DNA of 30,030 bases from the IMG/VR virus record IMGVR_UViG_2778261231_000012, one strand, 5' to 3'. Positions 22,458 to 30,030 of this stretch are shown here, in pieces; the stretch's first letter is position 1, and every line of letters begins with the position of its first letter. Under the pieces are notes generated by a model that was not told the origin of the DNA, did not search any database, and saw only the letters and a list, made by a program, of their open reading frames with translations. Position numbers and translations under genes: made by a program. This stretch comes from a virus (taxonomy: Duplodnaviria; Heunggongvirae; Uroviricota; Caudoviricetes).

Positions 22458-25400
22458 ATGGCTACTTCCACTCCGATTAGAGGCCGCAAGGGCGGCAGTT
22501 CCAGTTCCCGTACCCCTACAGAACAGCCAGACGATCTCCAGTCCGTAGCGAAGGCCAAGATTCTTGTTGCGCTGGGAGAAGGGGAATTTGCGGGGCAGTT
22601 AACGGCTAAAGATATCTATCTTGACGGCACGCCACTGGAGAATGCAGACGGATCGCAAAACTTCAGCGGCGTGGCATGGGAGTTCCGCCCGGGGACTCAG
22701 GCTCAAAAGTATATTCAGGGCATCCCCGGTACCGAGAATGAAATCAGCGTAGGTACCGAAGTTTCAAGCGCTACGGCCTGGACGCATACCTTTACCAACA
22801 CCCAGCTGTCAGCCATTCGTCTGCGCCTCAAATGGCCATCACTGTTTAAACAGGAGGACGACGGCGATCTGGTCGGCTATTCGATTAATTACGCTATCGA
22901 TCTGCAGACAGATGGCGGTACCTGGCAGACCGTGCTTAATACCAGCGTCACCGGGAAAACCACGTCAGGCTACGAACGCAGCCACCGTATCGACTTACCG
23001 CAGGCGGGAAGCACCTGGACGGTACGTCTTCGTAAGCTCACCGCAGATGCGAACAGTGCGAAAATTGGCGACACGATGACGCTGCAGAGCTACACGGAGG
23101 TAATCGATGCCAAACTGCGCTATCCAAACACCGCGCTGCTGTACATTGAATTCGATTCAAGCCAGTTTAACGGCTCCATCCCGCAAATTTCCTGTGAACC
23201 GCGCGGGCGCGTTATCCGCGTGCCGGATACTTACGATCCGGAAACCCGGACCTATAGCGGTACCTGGACGGGGGCGTTTAAGTGGGCATGGACGGACAAT
23301 CCGGCGTGGATTTTTTACGATCTGGTGGTGAGCGACCGTTTTGGACTTGGCGACCGCCTGACGGCGGCAAATATTGATAAATGGACGCTTTACCAGGTCG
23401 CACAATATTGCGATCAGCTGGTTCCTGATGGTAAAGGCGGTAGCGGCACCGAGCCTCGCTATACCTGTAACGTGTACGTGCAGGAGAGGAATGACGCCTA
23501 TACCGTGTTACGTGATTTTGCGGCGATATTCCGTGGCATGACGTACTGGGGCGGCAATCAAATCGTTGCACTGGCAGATATGCCCCGCGATGTTGATTAC
23601 AGCTACACCCGCGCTAACGTGGTTGACGGCCGCTTTACCTATTCTGGCAGCACCACTAAAAACCGCTATACCACCGCGCTGGTTTCCTGGTCAGATCCGG
23701 GTAATGCCTACGCAGATGCGATGGAGCCGGTTTTTGAACAGGAGCTCGTCGCTCGCTTTGGCACAAACCAGCTCGAGATGACAGCCATTGGCTGTACCCG
23801 GCAGTCTGAGGCAAACCGTAAGGGGCGCTGGGGGATTCAGACCAATAACAAGGATCGCATCGTATCGTTTGATGTTGGTCTGGACGGCAACATTCCACAG
23901 CCTGGTTATATTATCGCGGTTGCCGATGAGCTGTTATCCGGAAAGGTGATGGGAGGGCGTATCAGCGCGGTTAATGGTCGCGTTATCACGCTTGATCGTG
24001 ATTCCGCTGCCGTTGCCGGAAGCCGTCTTATGGTTAACCTGCCGTCTGGCGCATCGCAGAGCAGGACGATTCAGAGCGTAAACGGCCGGGCTGTCACCGT
24101 GACCACGGCATACAGCGAAACACCGGCAGTCGAATCGGTATGGATTGTCGAATCCGACGAGCTTTATGCACAGCAATATCGTGTTATCAGCGTCTCTGAT
24201 AATAACGACGGCACGTTTTCTATTACTGGTGCTTTTCACGATCCGGATAAGTATGCCCGTATCGATACCGGCGCCATCGTCGACCAGCGGCCAATAAGTG
24301 TAATTCCGCCCGGTAATCAGTCCCCGCCAGCTAATATCGCGATCAGTTCGTTTTCTGTCGTTCAGCAGAATATCAGCGTTGAGACCATGCGCGTCAGCTG
24401 GGACCAGGCGAAAAATGCTATCGCGTATGAGGCACAGTGGCGTCGCAATGACGGGAACTGGGTGAATGTGCCGCGCAGCTCCACCACGTCATTCGATGTT
24501 CCGGGGATTTATGCAGGACGCTACCTGGTTCGCGTGCGTGCCATCAATGCCGCCGAAATTTCATCTGGGTGGGGCTATTCAGAAGAGAAAACGTTGACGG
24601 GTAAAGTGGGAAACCCACCGAAGCCGGTTGGCTTCATCGCTTCTGAAAACGTGGTATTCGGTATTGAGCTGAACTGGGGATTCCCGGCGAATACCGAAGA
24701 CACGCTGAAGACGGAAATTCAGTACAGCCTGACCGGTACTGAAGACGATGCCATGCTGCTGGCCGATGTGCCTTACCCGCAGCGCAAATATCAGCAGATG
24801 GGCCTTAAGGCTGGGCAGATTTTCTGGTACCGCGCGCAGCTGGTGGACCGCAGCGGCAACGAATCAGGGTACACAGAATGGGTGCGAGGACAGGCCAGCA
24901 TCGATGTTTCCGATATCACAGATGTGATTCTGGAGGAAATTAAAGACTCCGATACGTTCAAAGACCTGATCGAGAACGCGGTGGACAGCAATGAAAAAAT
25001 TGCTGGCATGGCTGACGACATCAAACAGGCCAACGATGAACTTGAGCTCCAGGCGCAGGAAATCGCAAAAAACGCGCAGGACATTGGGCAGGTTCAGACC
25101 AGTGTTAATGAGCTTTCGAGCACGGTCGGTGATGTATCTTCCTCTCTATCAGATCTTGAGCAGACCGTCGCAACGGCTGATACCGCGCTGGGCCAGCGAA
25201 TCGACAGCATCAGCGTGTCTATGGACGGCATGACGGGCGGGGTTAAGAACTCAGCCATTGCCATTATCCAGAACGGACTGGCGCAGGTGGCCACACGCAA
25301 AAGGCTTTCCGCGACGGTCGCCGGTAACAGTGCGCAGCTGGATCGTCTCGACGAGGTGATCGTCAGTGAGAAGGAAGCCACAGCACGTTCATTGCTGAGC

Positions 25401-26009
25401 CTGCGGACGGACGTCAACGGCAACAAGGCATCCATCAACAGCCTGAATCAGACGCTCTCCGACTATCAGCAGGCCACCGCCACGCAGATAAACGGCATCA
25501 CGGCGACCGTGAACGGGCATACCTCCGCCATCACCACTAACGCTCAGGCTATAGCCAACGTTAATGGCGAACTCAGCGCGATGTATAACATCAAGGTGGG
25601 GGTGTCCAGTAACGGGCAGTATTACGCTGCCGGGATGGGTATTGGGGTTCAAAATACACCCTCCGGCATGCAGTCACAGGTAATCTTCCTGGCAGACCGT
25701 TTCGCCGTGACTACTATGGTCGGCGGGACTGTAACACTGCCGTTCGTTATCCAGAATGGCCAGGCCATTATCAGGGATACAGTCATTGGCGACGGGACCA
25801 TAAGCAATGCAAAAATTGGCAATTACATCCAGTCGAACAATTATGTTGCCGGCTCTGTTGGCTGGAAACTGGATAAGTCCGGGACGTTTGAGAACTACGG
25901 TTCGACAGCTGGGGAGGGAGCCATGAAGCAGACCAACCAGACAATCAGCGTCAAGGATGGCAACAACGTTCTGAGAGTGCAGGTTGGCCGATTAACGGGG
26001 GTGTTCTGA
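22458..26009 (+). CDS. J: tip attachment / host specificity protein gpJ (central tail fibre)
   Basis: 1183 aa; lambda J-like length, position and internal motifs (YTCNVYV, FN3-like repeats); C-terminal about 300 aa look divergent from lambda J by recall. Confidence 0.95.
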   Translation: MATSTPIRGRKGGSSSSRTPTEQPDDLQSVAKAKILVALGEGEFAGQLTAKDIYLDGTPLENADGSQNFSGVAWEFRPGTQAQKYIQGIPGTENEISVGTEVSSATAWTHTFTNTQLSAIRLRLKWPSLFKQEDDGDLVGYSINYAIDLQTDGGTWQTVLNTSVTGKTTSGYERSHRIDLPQAGSTWTVRLRKLTADANSAKIGDTMTLQSYTEVIDAKLRYPNTALLYIEFDSSQFNGSIPQISCEPRGRVIRVPDTYDPETRTYSGTWTGAFKWAWTDNPAWIFYDLVVSDRFGLGDRLTAANIDKWTLYQVAQYCDQLVPDGKGGSGTEPRYTCNVYVQERNDAYTVLRDFAAIFRGMTYWGGNQIVALADMPRDVDYSYTRANVVDGRFTYSGSTTKNRYTTALVSWSDPGNAYADAMEPVFEQELVARFGTNQLEMTAIGCTRQSEANRKGRWGIQTNNKDRIVSFDVGLDGNIPQPGYIIAVADELLSGKVMGGRISAVNGRVITLDRDSAAVAGSRLMVNLPSGASQSRTIQSVNGRAVTVTTAYSETPAVESVWIVESDELYAQQYRVISVSDNNDGTFSITGAFHDPDKYARIDTGAIVDQRPISVIPPGNQSPPANIAISSFSVVQQNISVETMRVSWDQAKNAIAYEAQWRRNDGNWVNVPRSSTTSFDVPGIYAGRYLVRVRAINAAEISSGWGYSEEKTLTGKVGNPPKPVGFIASENVVFGIELNWGFPANTEDTLKTEIQYSLTGTEDDAMLLADVPYPQRKYQQMGLKAGQIFWYRAQLVDRSGNESGYTEWVRGQASIDVSDITDVILEEIKDSDTFKDLIENAVDSNEKIAGMADDIKQANDELELQAQEIAKNAQDIGQVQTSVNELSSTVGDVSSSLSDLEQTVATADTALGQRIDSISVSMDGMTGGVKNSAIAIIQNGLAQVATRKRLSATVAGNSAQLDRLDEVIVSEKEATARSLLSLRTDVNGNKASINSLNQTLSDYQQATATQINGITATVNGHTSAITTNAQAIANVNGELSAMYNIKVGVSSNGQYYAAGMGIGVQNTPSGMQSQVIFLADRFAVTTMVGGTVTLPFVIQNGQAIIRDTVIGDGTISNAKIGNYIQSNNYVAGSVGWKLDKSGTFENYGSTAGEGAMKQTNQTISVKDGNNVLRVQVGRLTGVF

Positions 26010-26010
26010 T

Positions 26011-26313
26011 ATGGCTTATGGAATACAGACCTGGGATGCTTCGGGAAACCCCAACAACTACGGAATCAAGCCCGTTTCCGTTGTTGGACGTATACAACTT
26101 GCCGCCGGACAAAACTCCGGCAGCTGGTCTTTCACTGTACCCTCAGGAATGAAGGTCGGTTTTGCGCTCTCACTTGATGAAGGAGGTAACAGCGTAGGGA
26201 GGAGCATTGTCGCGTCAGGGAACACAATAACCGTAACCGCAGCCTCTTCTGTGGGCCTGGGTAATTACCCGGCCTCTAAATGTGAGGTGGTCGTTTTCAT
26301 GGAGAAAGCATAA
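26011..26313 (+). CDS. hypothetical protein downstream of J (contains WDASG motif)
   Basis: 100-aa ORF starting 2 nt after the J stop. Confidence 0.55.
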   Translation: MAYGIQTWDASGNPNNYGIKPVSVVGRIQLAAGQNSGSWSFTVPSGMKVGFALSLDEGGNSVGRSIVASGNTITVTAASSVGLGNYPASKCEVVVFMEKA

Positions 26314-26987
26314 TGGCCGAATTTGGCGCGATGATATTAATGGATAACGGGAATCCCTTTGTAACGCCACAATCAACGCCTTTCTGTCTTTACGGGAAGT
26401 ATACCTTCAATTCATCCGCGAATGGCAGTTCTCAGCAGGTTGCTCAAAATATCGCTTTAAACGCTGATTACCCAGTGATGGTTTTTATCAAAACCACCAA
26501 TACAGCACAGCCCACTCCGGTTATGTCTTACAGGAACGGCGGTAATGTGTATGTTGTTGGTGTTAATCCCTACAACCAAAGTTTCACTTTAACGGCGTAC
26601 GTTTTTGCCATATTCCCGCAGATATTACCGAAATGGGGTTTGGCAATATGGGATGCGAGCGGAAAGCTTGTGTTAACTAATGAGTCCCGTGTGCTATCAG
26701 ACCTGCAGACGGTTGGCACGCCTGGTGCAAACGGCGGGATAAATATTGACCAGACGCTGAGCGGGTCATGGGCCGTTGCACCTGCTCAGTTGGGTCAGAC
26801 CATCATTGTGAATAATTCAACCAAGCCTCCGACTATCTACACGATAAATGCTTATTCTTCATGCAGGTTTGACGGGGCCAATACGAGGATAAACGCAGGG
26901 GGGACCTCCACTGGGGCAGGTTCACCTGGAGGGGGAACGAATACTGGCATTTCATTAACCGCCATAAATACAGCGGCCTATGATTGA
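26313..26987 (+). CDS. hypothetical protein (WDASG motif; Gly-rich C-terminus), possibly tail-tip associated
   Basis: 224-aa ORF whose ATG overlaps the preceding stop (TAATG); shares IWDASGK-type motif with the preceding ORF. Confidence 0.55.
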   Translation: MAEFGAMILMDNGNPFVTPQSTPFCLYGKYTFNSSANGSSQQVAQNIALNADYPVMVFIKTTNTAQPTPVMSYRNGGNVYVVGVNPYNQSFTLTAYVFAIFPQILPKWGLAIWDASGKLVLTNESRVLSDLQTVGTPGANGGINIDQTLSGSWAVAPAQLGQTIIVNNSTKPPTIYTINAYSSCRFDGANTRINAGGTSTGAGSPGGGTNTGISLTAINTAAYD

Positions 26988-27098
26988 TTGATCGTTTTTA
27001 GCGATCAATAACATAATATTGATCTATCCAATCAATTATACCCACCAGAATTGTATTGGTATCGTCTAAGATACTGAATTCCTCTGGATACTATCAAA

Positions 27099-27332
27099 AT
27101 GAGAAAACTGATTATCTGCATGGCAGGCGCTGTCATGCTTACAGGATGCGCTGGCGTAATTGAGAAACAGGAACCAGTTTGCAGCGGCACTGCAATCGTT
27201 GGCGGTCAGGAAACTACGGTTCAGATTTACGGTGTGCGTAAACAAAACAACCAGACGCAGTACCGGGCTGGATATCCTTTCAGCTGGCGCTGGGTAAGTG
27301 CGAATACATTTACCGAAACAACCTGCAAATAA
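27099..27332 (+). CDS. small lipoprotein moron (candidate Cor-like superinfection-exclusion lipoprotein)
   Basis: 77 aa; signal peptide with lipobox LTGC (MRKLIICMAGAVMLTGCAG); own upstream AT-rich region and downstream intrinsic terminator; located between J-distal ORFs and the side tail fibre. Confidence 0.6.
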   Translation: MRKLIICMAGAVMLTGCAGVIEKQEPVCSGTAIVGGQETTVQIYGVRKQNNQTQYRAGYPFSWRWVSANTFTETTCK

Positions 27333-27351
27333 CCCACTACGCTTAAACATA

Positions 27352-27376
27352 AACCTCGCTCCGGCGGGGTTTTTTT
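27352..27376 (+). terminator. intrinsic terminator after the lipoprotein gene
   Basis: cctcgc-tccccg-gcgggg hairpin followed by TTTTTTT. Confidence 0.6.
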
Positions 27377-27392
27377 ATTGCCTGGAGAAAAT

Positions 27393-28226
27393 ATGCTTTA
27401 TAACACCGGCACCATCGCCATTAATGGAAATACCGCCACCGGGACGGGTACAAACTGGACGGCACCGGCCAGCCAGGTCCGCGCTGGCCAGACGATTATC
27501 GTGATGTCTAACCCGGTGCAGCTGTTTCATATTTCATCCGTGAACAGCGCCACGTCAATGACGGTTACGCCTGCCGCTTCCCCGGCGCTGAGCGGCCAGA
27601 AATACGCCATTCTGGTGTCAGACATTATCTCCGTGGACGGACTGGCCCAGGCAATGTCGCAGCTCATCAAAGAGTATGACGAGAACATTGGCGCGTGGGA
27701 GACGTTCGCCACTACCTCAGCAAACCAGACCATCACCGTTACCATCAACGGGACCACCGTAACCATCCCTGGCATCGGTAAACTGGCACAGAAAGGGAGC
27801 AACGGTGCGGTTACTGTCGCAGACGGCGGAACCGGCGCAACGAATGCCGCAGACGCTCGCACAAACCTTGGTTTGGGAACAGCGGCGCAGCGAAATGTGG
27901 GAACGGGTGCAAATCAGATCCCAGATATGAATTCATTCACATCTCAAAAGTCATTGACCGGATGGCAAAAATTGCCTGGTGGATTGATTTTACAGTGGGG
28001 GCTGACAACAACCTCTGGGTCAGAGCAAAACGCACTGGTAACATTTCCTGTGGCATTTCCGGGATCAATACTGATGGAATATACGACATATGCAAACATC
28101 TCCGGCGACCCAGCAACCGGATCAACATACATTGGCCAGGTCAGAACAACGAGTAATACACAAATGTATGTTCGCAATCTTGGGCCGACTAATGCTCAAT
28201 ATAACTGGCTAGTAATCGGATATTAA
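27393..28226 (+). CDS. side tail fibre protein (constant N-terminal part plus currently expressed variable C-terminal cassette Sv)
   Basis: ATG 27393 with GGAG SD; N-terminus [19 protein letters not shown] and motif [21 protein letters not shown] typical of phage tail fibres; gix-like crossover site lies inside the gene at 27856-27881. Confidence 0.85.
27856..27881. repeat. left crossover site of the invertible segment (gix/hix-like, 12+2+12 bp)
   Basis: ctcgcacAAACC-TT-GGTTTgggaaca; inner half is a perfect inverted copy of 29397-29408. Confidence 0.7.
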
Positions 28227-28236
28227 GGGAGGGGGT

Positions 28237-28641
28237 ATGTATTACGCTAAATCTACAGGTGGATTTTATACGCCTGAAATTAACGGAAAAAATATTCCTG
28301 ATGATGCTATTGAAATCACGGAAGATGAATACTTGGGATTATTGCAGGCTCAGGCTGACGGGAAAATAATTACCTCAGATGATAAGGGGAATCCGGTTGC
28401 AATCGATCCGCCGCCATTGACGCAAGAAGAACTTGTTGCGCAGGCTGAACGCGAAAAGGCTTCTTTGTTAAAGCAAGCAACGAATTCGATTGCGCCGTTA
28501 CAGGATGCTTCCGACCTTGGTATTGCGACAGATGAAGAAATTAAACAGCTTACTGACTGGAAAAAATATCGGGTGCAGCTGATGCGTGTTGATACATCAA
28601 AAGCACCCGCTTTCGAGTGGCCTACATCTCCGGCTGATTAG
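28237..28641 (+). CDS. tail fibre assembly protein (Tfa)
   Basis: 134 aa; GGGAGGGGG SD; C-terminus [23 protein letters not shown] matches the recalled Tfa family signature. Confidence 0.85.
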
Positions 28642-29056
28642 GCCAAGTAATATCCGGGGCCGCTGAAGTATCGACGGCTTCAATATTATCCAGGTAATCC
28701 AGCCACGCGTTATATCTCGCTTTATCCGTGTCTTTTAAGCGGCCCATAGCCGCTTTCCCTGGCCACTGATTGCTGTTTATGTAGTCGTTTGCAGCATCAG
28801 TTAGGCTCTGCTTTTCAACCTCCGCTTGCGCCACAATTTCTTCATGGGTCGGAGGGGGAATGTCTTCCCATTCAGGTAGTCCATTTGTTCCAGCTACTCT
28901 TTTTTTCCCTTCGGGAGGCTCTCCCGTAAATTCGCTGTATAACTGTTCTGTTACCTCAACTGCATCCTCTGGCCAACCGATGCCATTGATATAATCATCT
29001 TTAAGCTCAAGCGGGAAAAAGCTGTTGTGTTTAGCGCTATAAAAATATGTGTTCAC
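28622..29056 (-). CDS. alternative tail fibre assembly protein (Tfa')
   Basis: Minus-strand ORF with C-terminus [24 protein letters not shown]; likely GTG start at 29056 ([14 protein letters not shown], parallel to the + strand Tfa start [11 protein letters not shown]) preceded by GGGAG SD; track start 29119 is an extension. Confidence 0.7.
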
Positions 29057-29057
29057 G

Positions 29058-29405
29058 TTAGCTCCCAATAGCAAAAAAGTATGCATTGAAACCGCCCGCA
29101 CCGGACATGTACGCCCCAAATCCTGCGCCGTTAACGGTGTTATTCACCACTGCCAGAGTTGGCGATGGGGTTCCACCTGAAAAGTTAATATCAGCAAATG
29201 TAAGCTGAATATTGCTCACCACACTGGGAAAATTGATAGGGAATGGAACTGAAATCTGTGTTTGCCCCACAGGAAAACCCGCTTTTCCCCACTGTAAGAT
29301 TTTCCCACCTGGCAATTTTTGCCACCCACTAGCGTTGGTAAAGCTGGACATATCAGGTATCTGTCCGGCACCGGCTCCTACGTTCTTCGTTGCTGCTGTT
29401 CCCAA
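29058..29405 (-). CDS. alternative tail-fibre C-terminal cassette (Sv'), silent in this orientation
   Basis: Minus-strand ORF whose N-terminal part ([39 protein letters not shown]) is paralogous to the + strand fibre segment after the crossover site; no own start; in-frame fusion to the fibre N-terminal part would result from inversion. Confidence 0.7.
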   Translation of the reverse strand: MGTAATKNVGAGAGQIPDMSSFTNASGWQKLPGGKILQWGKAGFPVGQTQISVPFPINFPSVVSNIQLTFADINFSGGTPSPTLAVVNNTVNGAGFGAYMSGAGGFNAYFFAIGS

Positions 29406-29422
29406 ACCAACCTTTCAAATAT
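29397..29422. repeat. right crossover site of the invertible segment
   Basis: tgttcccAAACC-AA-CCTTTcaaatat; inner half identical (inverted) to the left site; about 60 bp upstream of the invertase gene. Confidence 0.7.
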
Positions 29423-29449
29423 TTTTCTGAATCAGGTGATATTTCGCCT

Positions 29450-29476
29450 CTTCTCCTGTTTTTACAACAGGAGAAG
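29450..29476 (+). promoter_or_regulatory. perfect 11-bp hairpin sequestering the invertase Shine-Dalgarno
   Basis: cttctcctgtt-tttac-aacaggagaag; 3' arm contains AGGAG located 8 nt upstream of the invertase ATG. Confidence 0.45.
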
Positions 29477-29481
29477 CACTC

Positions 29482-30030
29482 ATGATTTACGGTTATGCCC
29501 GAGTATCAACAAACCACCAGGACACTGAATTGCAACTAACGGCGCTCAAGTCAGCGGGTTGTGAGAAAATTTTTGAAGAGCATGCCAGCGGGAGGAAATC
29601 GAATCGGCCGGTTCTAAAACGGCTGATCGCCACTATGCAGCCGGGGGATGAACTGGTGGTCTGGAAGCTGGACAGGATAGGCCGCAACGTTCTGCATGCG
29701 CTGTTGATGTTCCAGCAGTTACAGGAAAAGGGTATCAACTTCCGCAGTATTACCGATGGCGTGGATCTCAAAACAGCCAGCGGCCGCTATAACTTTCGTA
29801 ACATCCTTTCCGCAGCACAATATGAATCTGATCTTAATAGCGAACGTACCTTAGCAGGGCTGGCCGTAGCCAGGGCAAAAGGGCGAGTTGGTGGTCGCAG
29901 GCCTAAGTTCACGGATGAGCAATGGCGGGAAATGGGGGAGCGGATGGCAACCGGTGAATCACGACAAAGCGTATCAAAAACGTATGGAGTAGGGCTCTCA
30001 ACTCTGTATAAAAAGTTTCCAGCTAGCTGA
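29482..30030 (+). CDS. site-specific DNA invertase, serine recombinase of the Hin/Gin/Pin/Cin family
   Basis: 182 aa; N-terminal catalytic motif YARVSTNHQD, VVWKLDRIGRN, C-terminal HTH ending GLSTLYKKFPAS as in recalled Hin/Pin sequences. Confidence 0.9.
   Translation: MIYGYARVSTNHQDTELQLTALKSAGCEKIFEEHASGRKSNRPVLKRLIATMQPGDELVVWKLDRIGRNVLHALLMFQQLQEKGINFRSITDGVDLKTASGRYNFRNILSAAQYESDLNSERTLAGLAVARAKGRVGGRRPKFTDEQWREMGERMATGESRQSVSKTYGVGLSTLYKKFPAS

Follow-up and report, generated by a model that had tools for sequence, protein, structure and literature searches.

The locus considered here raises the question of what is done by two small proteins encoded directly behind J, the tail-tip gene, in a stretch of 30,030 nucleotides (nt) from a virus of the Caudoviricetes (IMG/VR record IMGVR_UViG_2778261231_000012), the whole of which is hereafter called the window. 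The two open reading frames (ORFs), named A (100 residues) and B (224 residues), had been singled out in an original prediction made from the sequence alone, in which both were noted to contain W-D-A-S-G and were proposed to share a duplicated domain and to serve as tail-tip accessory or receptor-interaction proteins. The answer favoured here, with a probability of roughly 0.6, is that a phi80-like lambdoid phage here carries a FhuA-type receptor-specificity cassette, made up of J, the gp22-like A, the gp23-like B and cor, in which B would be the receptor-binding protein (RBP) mounted on the tip of J.

The coordinates and quoted strings of the original prediction proved exact. The stop codon of J (TGA, 26007-26009) is separated by a single nucleotide from the ATG of A at 26011, and the ATG of B shares one base with the stop codon of A (TAA, 26311-26313) in the string ATAATG; because of this 1-nt gap and 1-nt overlap, A and B are likely to be translated in a coupled manner. 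Shine-Dalgarno-like stretches, GGGGG and GGAG, precede the two start codons by 9-14 nt, and a search for terminator-like hairpins between J, A and B returned none of any strength. The shared pentapeptide falls within residues 3-18 of A (YGIQTWDASGNPNNYG) and residues 108-126 of B (WGLAIWDASGKLVLTNESR).

Both proteins belong to recognised phage families, A matching PHROG 557 over its full length (E = 3.1e-36) and B matching PHROG 425 over positions 1-224 of 224 (E = 3.2e-80), and scans of Pfam and NCBIfam returned no family for either. J is placed by PHROG 31 ("central tail fiber J") and by the Pfam families FNIII-A_GpJ (1.6e-50), Phage_Tail_Tip (6.5e-48) and Phage-tail_3 (1.5e-14). The product of cor matches lamb_exclu_cor at 9e-42, above the curated cutoff, and has a lipoprotein signal with an LTGC lipobox. 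The gene is preceded by a promoter-like site at 26988-27017 and followed by a terminator-like hairpin at 27351-27372, in agreement with the annotation of phi80. The window accordingly holds a PHROG 557 protein straight after J, a PHROG 425 protein next on the same strand and an adjacent cor. These are the genes of the phi80 cassette, with orthologues in mEp237 (mEp237_021/022), N15, HK022, ES18 and T1; compared with mEp237 and phi80, the lengths, order, 1-nt overlap and a downstream cor with its own promoter and terminator are all alike, and no difference is seen in the cassette itself. The DNA identity of the region is 99.8% to mEp237, 99.3% to HK140 and HK225 and 87.7% to phi80, in which the counterparts are annotated as gp22 (100 residues) and gp23 (224 residues), followed by cor.

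The 977-nt stretch spanning A and B is present in 49 of 5,426 complete E. coli genomes, always in the chromosome, where the Prokaryotic Genome Annotation Pipeline (PGAP) annotates two hypothetical proteins. Matches to B were found by tblastn in 350 phage records, comprising lambdoid phages (phi80, HK022, N15, ES18 and the mEp series), Dhillonvirus, Drexlerviridae (T1 and Klebsiella weberviruses among them) and phages of Aeromonas and Pantoea. The A family is small, with only 68 matches among the 1.84 billion cluster representatives that were scanned exhaustively by HMMER. Six giant proteins of 2,000-4,700 residues also match the A profile, in 6-24 separate stretches each and always through the sandwich core (profile positions ~21-87); such matches may stem from composition, or from a relationship between the core of A and a repeat domain found in large adhesin-like proteins.

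Gene order was compared in phi80 and eight further annotated loci (T1, ES18, G29-2, SLUR29, two Klebsiella phages including A2, and one phage each of Aeromonas and Pantoea). Throughout this set, as in the window, J, A and B follow one another on one strand, with an A/B junction ranging from a 1-nt overlap to a 5-nt gap. The cor gene lies on the same strand in phi80, HK022 and the window, on the opposite strand in T1, ES18, G29-2 and SLUR29, and is missing from beside A and B in the Klebsiella, Aeromonas and Pantoea phages. Because the J-A-B order is constant and the strand and presence of cor vary, A and B are taken to travel with J and not with cor.

A match between this position and the terminal receptor has been drawn before. 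Maffei et al. (2021; PMC8594841) paired alleles downstream of gpJ with FhuA, BtuB, YncD or LptD, "pending experimental validation", and a 2026 preprint (bioRxiv 10.64898/2026.04.02.716166) reports that the match of locus and receptor was confirmed by genome-wide screens. The window agrees with that scheme in position, in having a cognate exclusion lipoprotein alongside and in its FhuA allele, and differs in that its cassette is borne by a temperate lambdoid phage. Among the BASEL phages, homologues are found for example in BrunoManser, PaulFeyerabend and LeonhardEuler. FhuA dependence is known for phi80, T1, N15, HK022 and ES18 (PMC13164509; PMC10373560), the very phages to which the three-gene cassette is restricted according to a passage of PMC13164509 citing Wietzorrek 2006; on the reading favoured here, the window phage would use FhuA as well. 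The tail-tip or receptor-interaction role of the original prediction thus gains support from the conserved J-A-B synteny and the published link of the cassette to FhuA, subject to the caveats weighed below.

The orthologous pair of Dhillonvirus JLBYU60 was modelled by Matusiak et al. (2025; PMC12309495), who described the small protein as an Ig-like trimer, claimed for it a likeness to the C-terminal receptor-binding domain of lambda J, and proposed the 23-kDa "hand-like" homologue of B (Dhillonvirus B proteins being about 58% identical to that of the window) as a monomer capping the J trimer, which gave the best predicted complex with FhuA in AlphaFold2-Multimer. Their proposal of a J cap directed at FhuA is the same as the one favoured here; its wet-lab support consists solely of a band of fitting size from a Pseudomonas phage in sodium dodecyl sulphate-polyacrylamide gel electrophoresis. 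The T5 system (pb5/Llp; PMC9586334) follows the same logic, with a separate RBP held non-covalently on the tail tip, FhuA as receptor and a small periplasmic blocking lipoprotein. It differs in that pb5 is a single protein of 640 residues and the genes have another location in the T5 genome; searches found no match to pb5 in sequence or in fold.

J offers a candidate site for such a cap. Its last ~90 residues (~1095-1183; window 25740-26006) are highly conserved in the nine cassette-bearing phages compared, distant from one another as these phages otherwise are; this conservation, in line with the 2026 preprint, fits a common docking platform. The sequence ends in LRVQxGRLTG(V/S/T)(F/W) in seven of the nine, and the J proteins of the Aeromonas and Pantoea phages stop four residues earlier. 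Between the FNIII region and the tip domain, residues ~815-1020 (window 24900-25500) weakly matched many families of coiled coils, BLOC1_2, Filament and DUF948 among them, as would fit the long alpha-helical extension that PMC11945409 predicts for T1 gp33.

For B, AlphaFold2 predicted two beta domains, at about residues 25-99 and 131-219, with a predicted local distance difference test score (pLDDT) of 89.6 and a predicted template modelling score of 0.86; the N-terminal 20 residues are of low confidence (pLDDT 55-60), and the linker bearing WDASG is of intermediate confidence and forms a small hairpin (E111-113/E119-122). On fold comparison, the model matched a solved LptD-type RBP (PDB 9RPT, chain 9rpt_C) at 9% sequence identity, the RBP fold match of B being far stronger than that of A; the modelled B has the same three-dimensional scaffold as the solved DUF6453-type RBP. 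This match argues against the view, taken in the receptor-locus scheme, that the families behind gpJ are unrelated. The solved protein, known from the cryo-electron microscopy (cryo-EM) structure of the Oekolampad RBP-LptDE complex (PMC12685063), differs from the present pair in that the Oekolampad/Rtp44 RBP is a single protein of 311-321 residues without an A-like partner and binds LptD, not FhuA; in Rtp, moreover, the RBP gene lies on the strand opposite J, unlike A and B here. Sequence searches of the PDB with A and B as single sequences and with the B profile yielded nothing useful, and PF20051 (DUF6453) had no match at E <= 10 in B or any of 66 homologues.

Conservation within B follows a pattern typical of RBPs, with conserved N-terminal and linker segments and variable sandwich blocks (residues 31-50, 61-90 and 161-210), the C-terminal residues 211-224 also being conserved. 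The Gly/Thr-rich end of B, described in the original prediction as a tract closing the protein, was borne out in composition (residues 191-224 are 76% G/T/S/A/N) and needs correction as to structure: it was modelled as strands of the second sandwich (E190-197, E204-210 and E215-219) at pLDDT 87-97, not as a loose tail. The DNA similarity of the window to HK022, HK544 and mEpX1/2 ends inside B at nt ~26773 (codon ~154), B in those phages being 212 residues long, 12 fewer than here; this points to a putative mosaic joint between the window and the HK022 group in the second sandwich, at the variable block 161-210.

The shared pentapeptide would be of little weight as a single pairwise match, which was borderline (BLASTP, 10 residues, E = 0.028). 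Within the A family the consensus (W/Y/F)G(I/V)xTWDxxGxxNNxG is kept in representatives below 50% identity, the first 20 residues being the most conserved part of A, and in an alignment of 66 B sequences P106, G109 and W113 are invariant and residues 111-130 form the most conserved blocks (entropy 0.36-0.85; 0.36 for 121-130). Shallow family alignments compared by hhalign aligned 12 columns only (E between 5e-5 and 8e-5), pairing the inter-domain motif of B with residues 2-13 of A; a deeper A profile and additional divergent B sequences extended the alignment to residues 1-84 of A and 107-204 of B (probability 85%, E = 5.9e-6), with a second colinear motif (GQNSGSWSFTVP in A, DQTLSGSWAVAP in B). 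The score of A against the C-terminal half of B was 35.3, as opposed to 11.8 +/- 2.2 in 100 column-shuffled controls (z = 10.8 by a null that ignores beta-strand periodicity, for which reason values near 3 were counted as not significant). Since the motif is conserved in both families and the profile-profile score far exceeds the shuffled null, the motif is more than chance.

The A profile also aligned end to end with the N-terminal half of B (A 1-98, B 1-100; E = 3.3e-4, probability 38%, z = 7.5), and the two halves of B compared directly fell short of significance (E = 0.034, z = 3.0). A therefore acts as the intermediate linking the halves. The N-terminus of B (FGAMILMDNGNPFVTPQSTP) resembles a degenerate copy of the leading motif, a copy which is plainer in divergent homologues, as in the Pantoea protein with FGAMLTDAAGVPFYIMDT at its N-terminus and YGLQVNDAQGRCVITHDT in its middle; in this segment G5, G13, F16, T18, P19, S21, T22, P23 and L26 are invariant, and the blocks covering residues 11-30 are of low entropy. 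The model of A (pLDDT 82.5) comprises seven strands over residues 23-99 behind an N-terminal 20 residues of low confidence, the leading motif scoring 53-58 in the monomer, which is consistent with a segment that may become ordered only on a partner. The plan of a leading low-confidence hairpin followed by seven strands hence recurs three times in the models, in A and in each half of B. The duplicated domain of the original prediction is likely, and wider than first noted, with three modules and not two: B probably arose when an A-like module, consisting of a leading hairpin and a seven-strand beta-sandwich, was duplicated in tandem, a conclusion that is moderately supported and not proven.

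It could instead be held that WDASG is a beta-hairpin turn reached by convergence and that A and B are unrelated. In favour of this are the mere 10-12 residues that align with shallow profiles, the non-significant comparison of the halves of B, the disregard of strand periodicity by the shuffled null, and the recurrence of such turns elsewhere: a hairpin at the C-terminus of J (GWKLDKSGTFENYG, compared with TWDASGNPNNYG of A), tried as a fourth copy of the motif, was rejected at E = 0.04 and z = 2.2. Set against the extended A/B alignment and its score, convergence is considered unlikely. Foldseek searches of viral models (BFVD) with A did not settle the relation, giving only weak matches to uncharacterised phage proteins of ~100 residues (best E = 8.6e-4, template modelling score about 0.5), with B-sized proteins appearing only at E of 0.1-0.2; one of the matches, the 105-residue protein A0A2S1PFX4 of Littlefixvirus 98PfluR60PP, is probably the "Ig-like" protein of PMC12309495.

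A more far-reaching and tentative proposal, judged somewhat less probable than even, is that A, both halves of B and the DUF6453 LptD RBPs, which carry a related motif (GPGINIFNSNNQCTFST), all derive from one module of ~100 residues consisting of an aromatic-G-x-x-x-(W/F)-(D/N)-x-x-G hairpin and a seven-strand sandwich. In profile comparisons with thirds of Rtp44, the N-terminal half of B matched residues 1-105 best (E = 0.0046, z = 4.4) and the C-terminal half matched residues 204-311 (E = 0.011, z = 3.5), A reaching z <= 2.3 against any third. The idea that A and B together represent a split DUF6453 protein (three modules, 324 versus 311 residues) foundered on these weak module comparisons and is kept only as speculation.

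Taken together, the following course of events is proposed. J, A and B would be made together from the late tail operon, A and B being tail-tip proteins of the virion and not membrane proteins. The N-terminal segment and inter-domain hairpin of B would hold it on the J trimer, at the conserved C-terminal tip, and the variable faces of its two sandwiches would contact the extracellular loops of FhuA. A, as a single-module paralogue of the B modules, would act as an accessory or adaptor at the J tip, and Cor, transcribed separately, would shut FhuA down in lysogens and infected cells. Each module would be led by a conserved hairpin (aromatic-G-h-x-h-W-D-x-x-G), with WDASG as its candidate turn. 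The hairpin would be a structural or assembly element and not the contact with the receptor; such a role would account both for its conservation, the highest within each protein, and for its poor placement in monomer models. The location in the virion, the docking on J, the binding of FhuA and the role of A are what we infer from gene arrangement, family membership, motif conservation, the lack of export signals and the fold match.

Several observations weigh against an RBP cassette. The DUF6453 family profile compares only marginally with B (hhalign probability 22%, E = 9.6e-4), and a beta-sandwich match at 9% identity could be convergent. The annotations of T1 and G29-2 place a rho-independent terminator (locus positions 1160-1186 and 1158-1175, respectively) in the 43-45 nt that part J from A, as opposed to the 1-nt gap of phi80 and the window or the 4-nt overlap of ES18; as the J/A gap varies and the T1-like phages have terminators, coupling of A to J is not universal, the A-B junction being tight everywhere. 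In the cryo-EM map of T1 the C-terminus of J is unresolved and nothing is seen there (PMC11945409), and the literature holds no experiment placing gp22 or gp23 in virions or on FhuA. The Klebsiella, Aeromonas and Pantoea phages carry A and B with no cor beside them, and the family need not always mean FhuA. Lastly, the GenBank record of ES18 describes gp33 as "present in virion" and gp30 and gp31 as "function unknown", and the role given to A is the weakest step of all.

The same ES18 record lends something to the proposal that A and B serve as chaperones in assembling the J tip or the side tail fibre, comparable to lambda Tfa or gpK/gpI; A and B would then be required for making infectious tails, yet be missing from the finished virion and never touch the receptor. 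Both proteins are small, their genes in the late operon are flanked by J and the side-fibre gene, and "structural or chaperone-like roles" were raised in PMC12309495. Such a role is nonetheless rated improbable. Distinctly improbable, too, is an exchange or sharing of the parts, with a trimer of A around the J tip contacting FhuA and B serving as adaptor or cap, or with both needed for the binding surface: the published AlphaFold2 scores with FhuA were poorest for A and best for B (PMC12309495), one Tempevirinae species has B and cor but no A (PMC13164509), and the RBP fold match is far stronger for B. What is implied by the PHROG labels and was suggested in the KanT1 paper (PMC13164509), namely that A and B are membrane or outer-membrane helpers of Cor in superinfection exclusion, can point to their adjoining cor and co-occurring with it in FhuA phages. 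The sequences of A and B, however, contain no basic N-region, signal peptide, lipobox or transmembrane segment (maximum 19-residue hydropathy 1.14 for A and 1.18 for B, compared with 2.02 for Cor), both are modelled as small all-beta sandwiches of soluble type, membrane-affinity estimates were low in PMC12309495, and A and B always follow J on its strand, where cor is often encoded on the other strand under a promoter of its own, or is absent. A role as Cor helpers is hence scarcely credible, and neither protein answers to the outer-membrane or membrane labels given in RefSeq phage records, which, because A and B lack any export or membrane signal, appear to be propagated misannotations. Preference is thus retained for B as an RBP on the J tip. 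Coordinates of the cassette and of the genes beyond it are collected in Table 1.

Table 1. Positions in the window of the putative receptor-specificity cassette, its motifs and the downstream genes.
Feature	Position	Strand	Remarks
J, tail-tip/central fibre protein, 1183 residues	22458..26009	+	Presumed platform (tip) for A and B
ORF A, 100 residues	26011..26313	+	Counterpart of phi80 gp22, N15 gp22, T1 gp32 and ES18 gp30; one-module beta-sandwich, proposed tail-tip accessory
A N-terminal leading motif, YGIQTWDASGNPNNYGIK	26017..26070	+	Most conserved segment of the A family; WDASG at 26032-26046
ORF B, 224 residues	26313..26987	+	Counterpart of phi80 gp23, N15 gp23, T1 gp31 and ES18 gp31; two-sandwich protein, proposed FhuA receptor-binding protein
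B N-terminal conserved segment, FGAMILMDNGNPFVTPQSTPFCLYGKY	26322..26402	+	Degenerate copy of the leading motif; candidate J-docking end
B inter-domain motif, KWGLAIWDASGKLVLTNESRVLSDL	26631..26705	+	WDASG at 26649-26663; within the most conserved blocks of the B family
B Gly/Thr-rich C-terminus, TRINAGGTSTGAGSPGGGTNTGISLTAINTAAYD	26883..26984	+	76% G/T/S/A/N
cor, FhuA-directed superinfection-exclusion lipoprotein, third cassette gene	27099..27332	+	NF047972, PHROG 1119, lipobox
Short side-fibre gene, Gp53-like C-terminal domain	27378-28226
Tail-fibre-assembly genes, two, convergent	28237-28641; 28622-29119	+; -
Alternative fibre C-terminus	29058-29405	-
Serine invertase	29482 to window end

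Past cor, the window (27378-30030) differs from mEp237, its side-fibre gene being shorter and having an invertible C-terminal segment. The segment is bracketed by inverted repeats (27863-28000 and 29287-29415) and looks like an invertible host-range switch of the Mu G/P1 C type.

Much of this is already known: the genes, their linkage to FhuA and the RBP hypothesis have all been published, and the window copy is nearly identical to that of sequenced phages. Three points were not found in the literature examined, namely that A is a probable paralogue of each half of B, that a modelled FhuA-type protein strongly matches a solved LptD-type RBP in fold, and that A and B lack an export signal. What the analysis adds is a scaffold that, on the model, is common to a FhuA-type protein and a solved LptD-type RBP, and a conserved WDxxG hairpin that marks a repeated module as a candidate assembly element and not a receptor contact. 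This locus determines the host range of lambda- and T1-like siphophages, so that to retarget such phages, or to predict receptors from genomes, one needs to know the protein that binds the receptor and the part that docks on J. Were the single-module origin to hold, the RBP families behind gpJ that have been published as unrelated would form a single modular superfamily in which members are either joined in one chain or divided among separate ORFs, and the hairpin would be the common connector that allows cassettes to be swapped between J tips.
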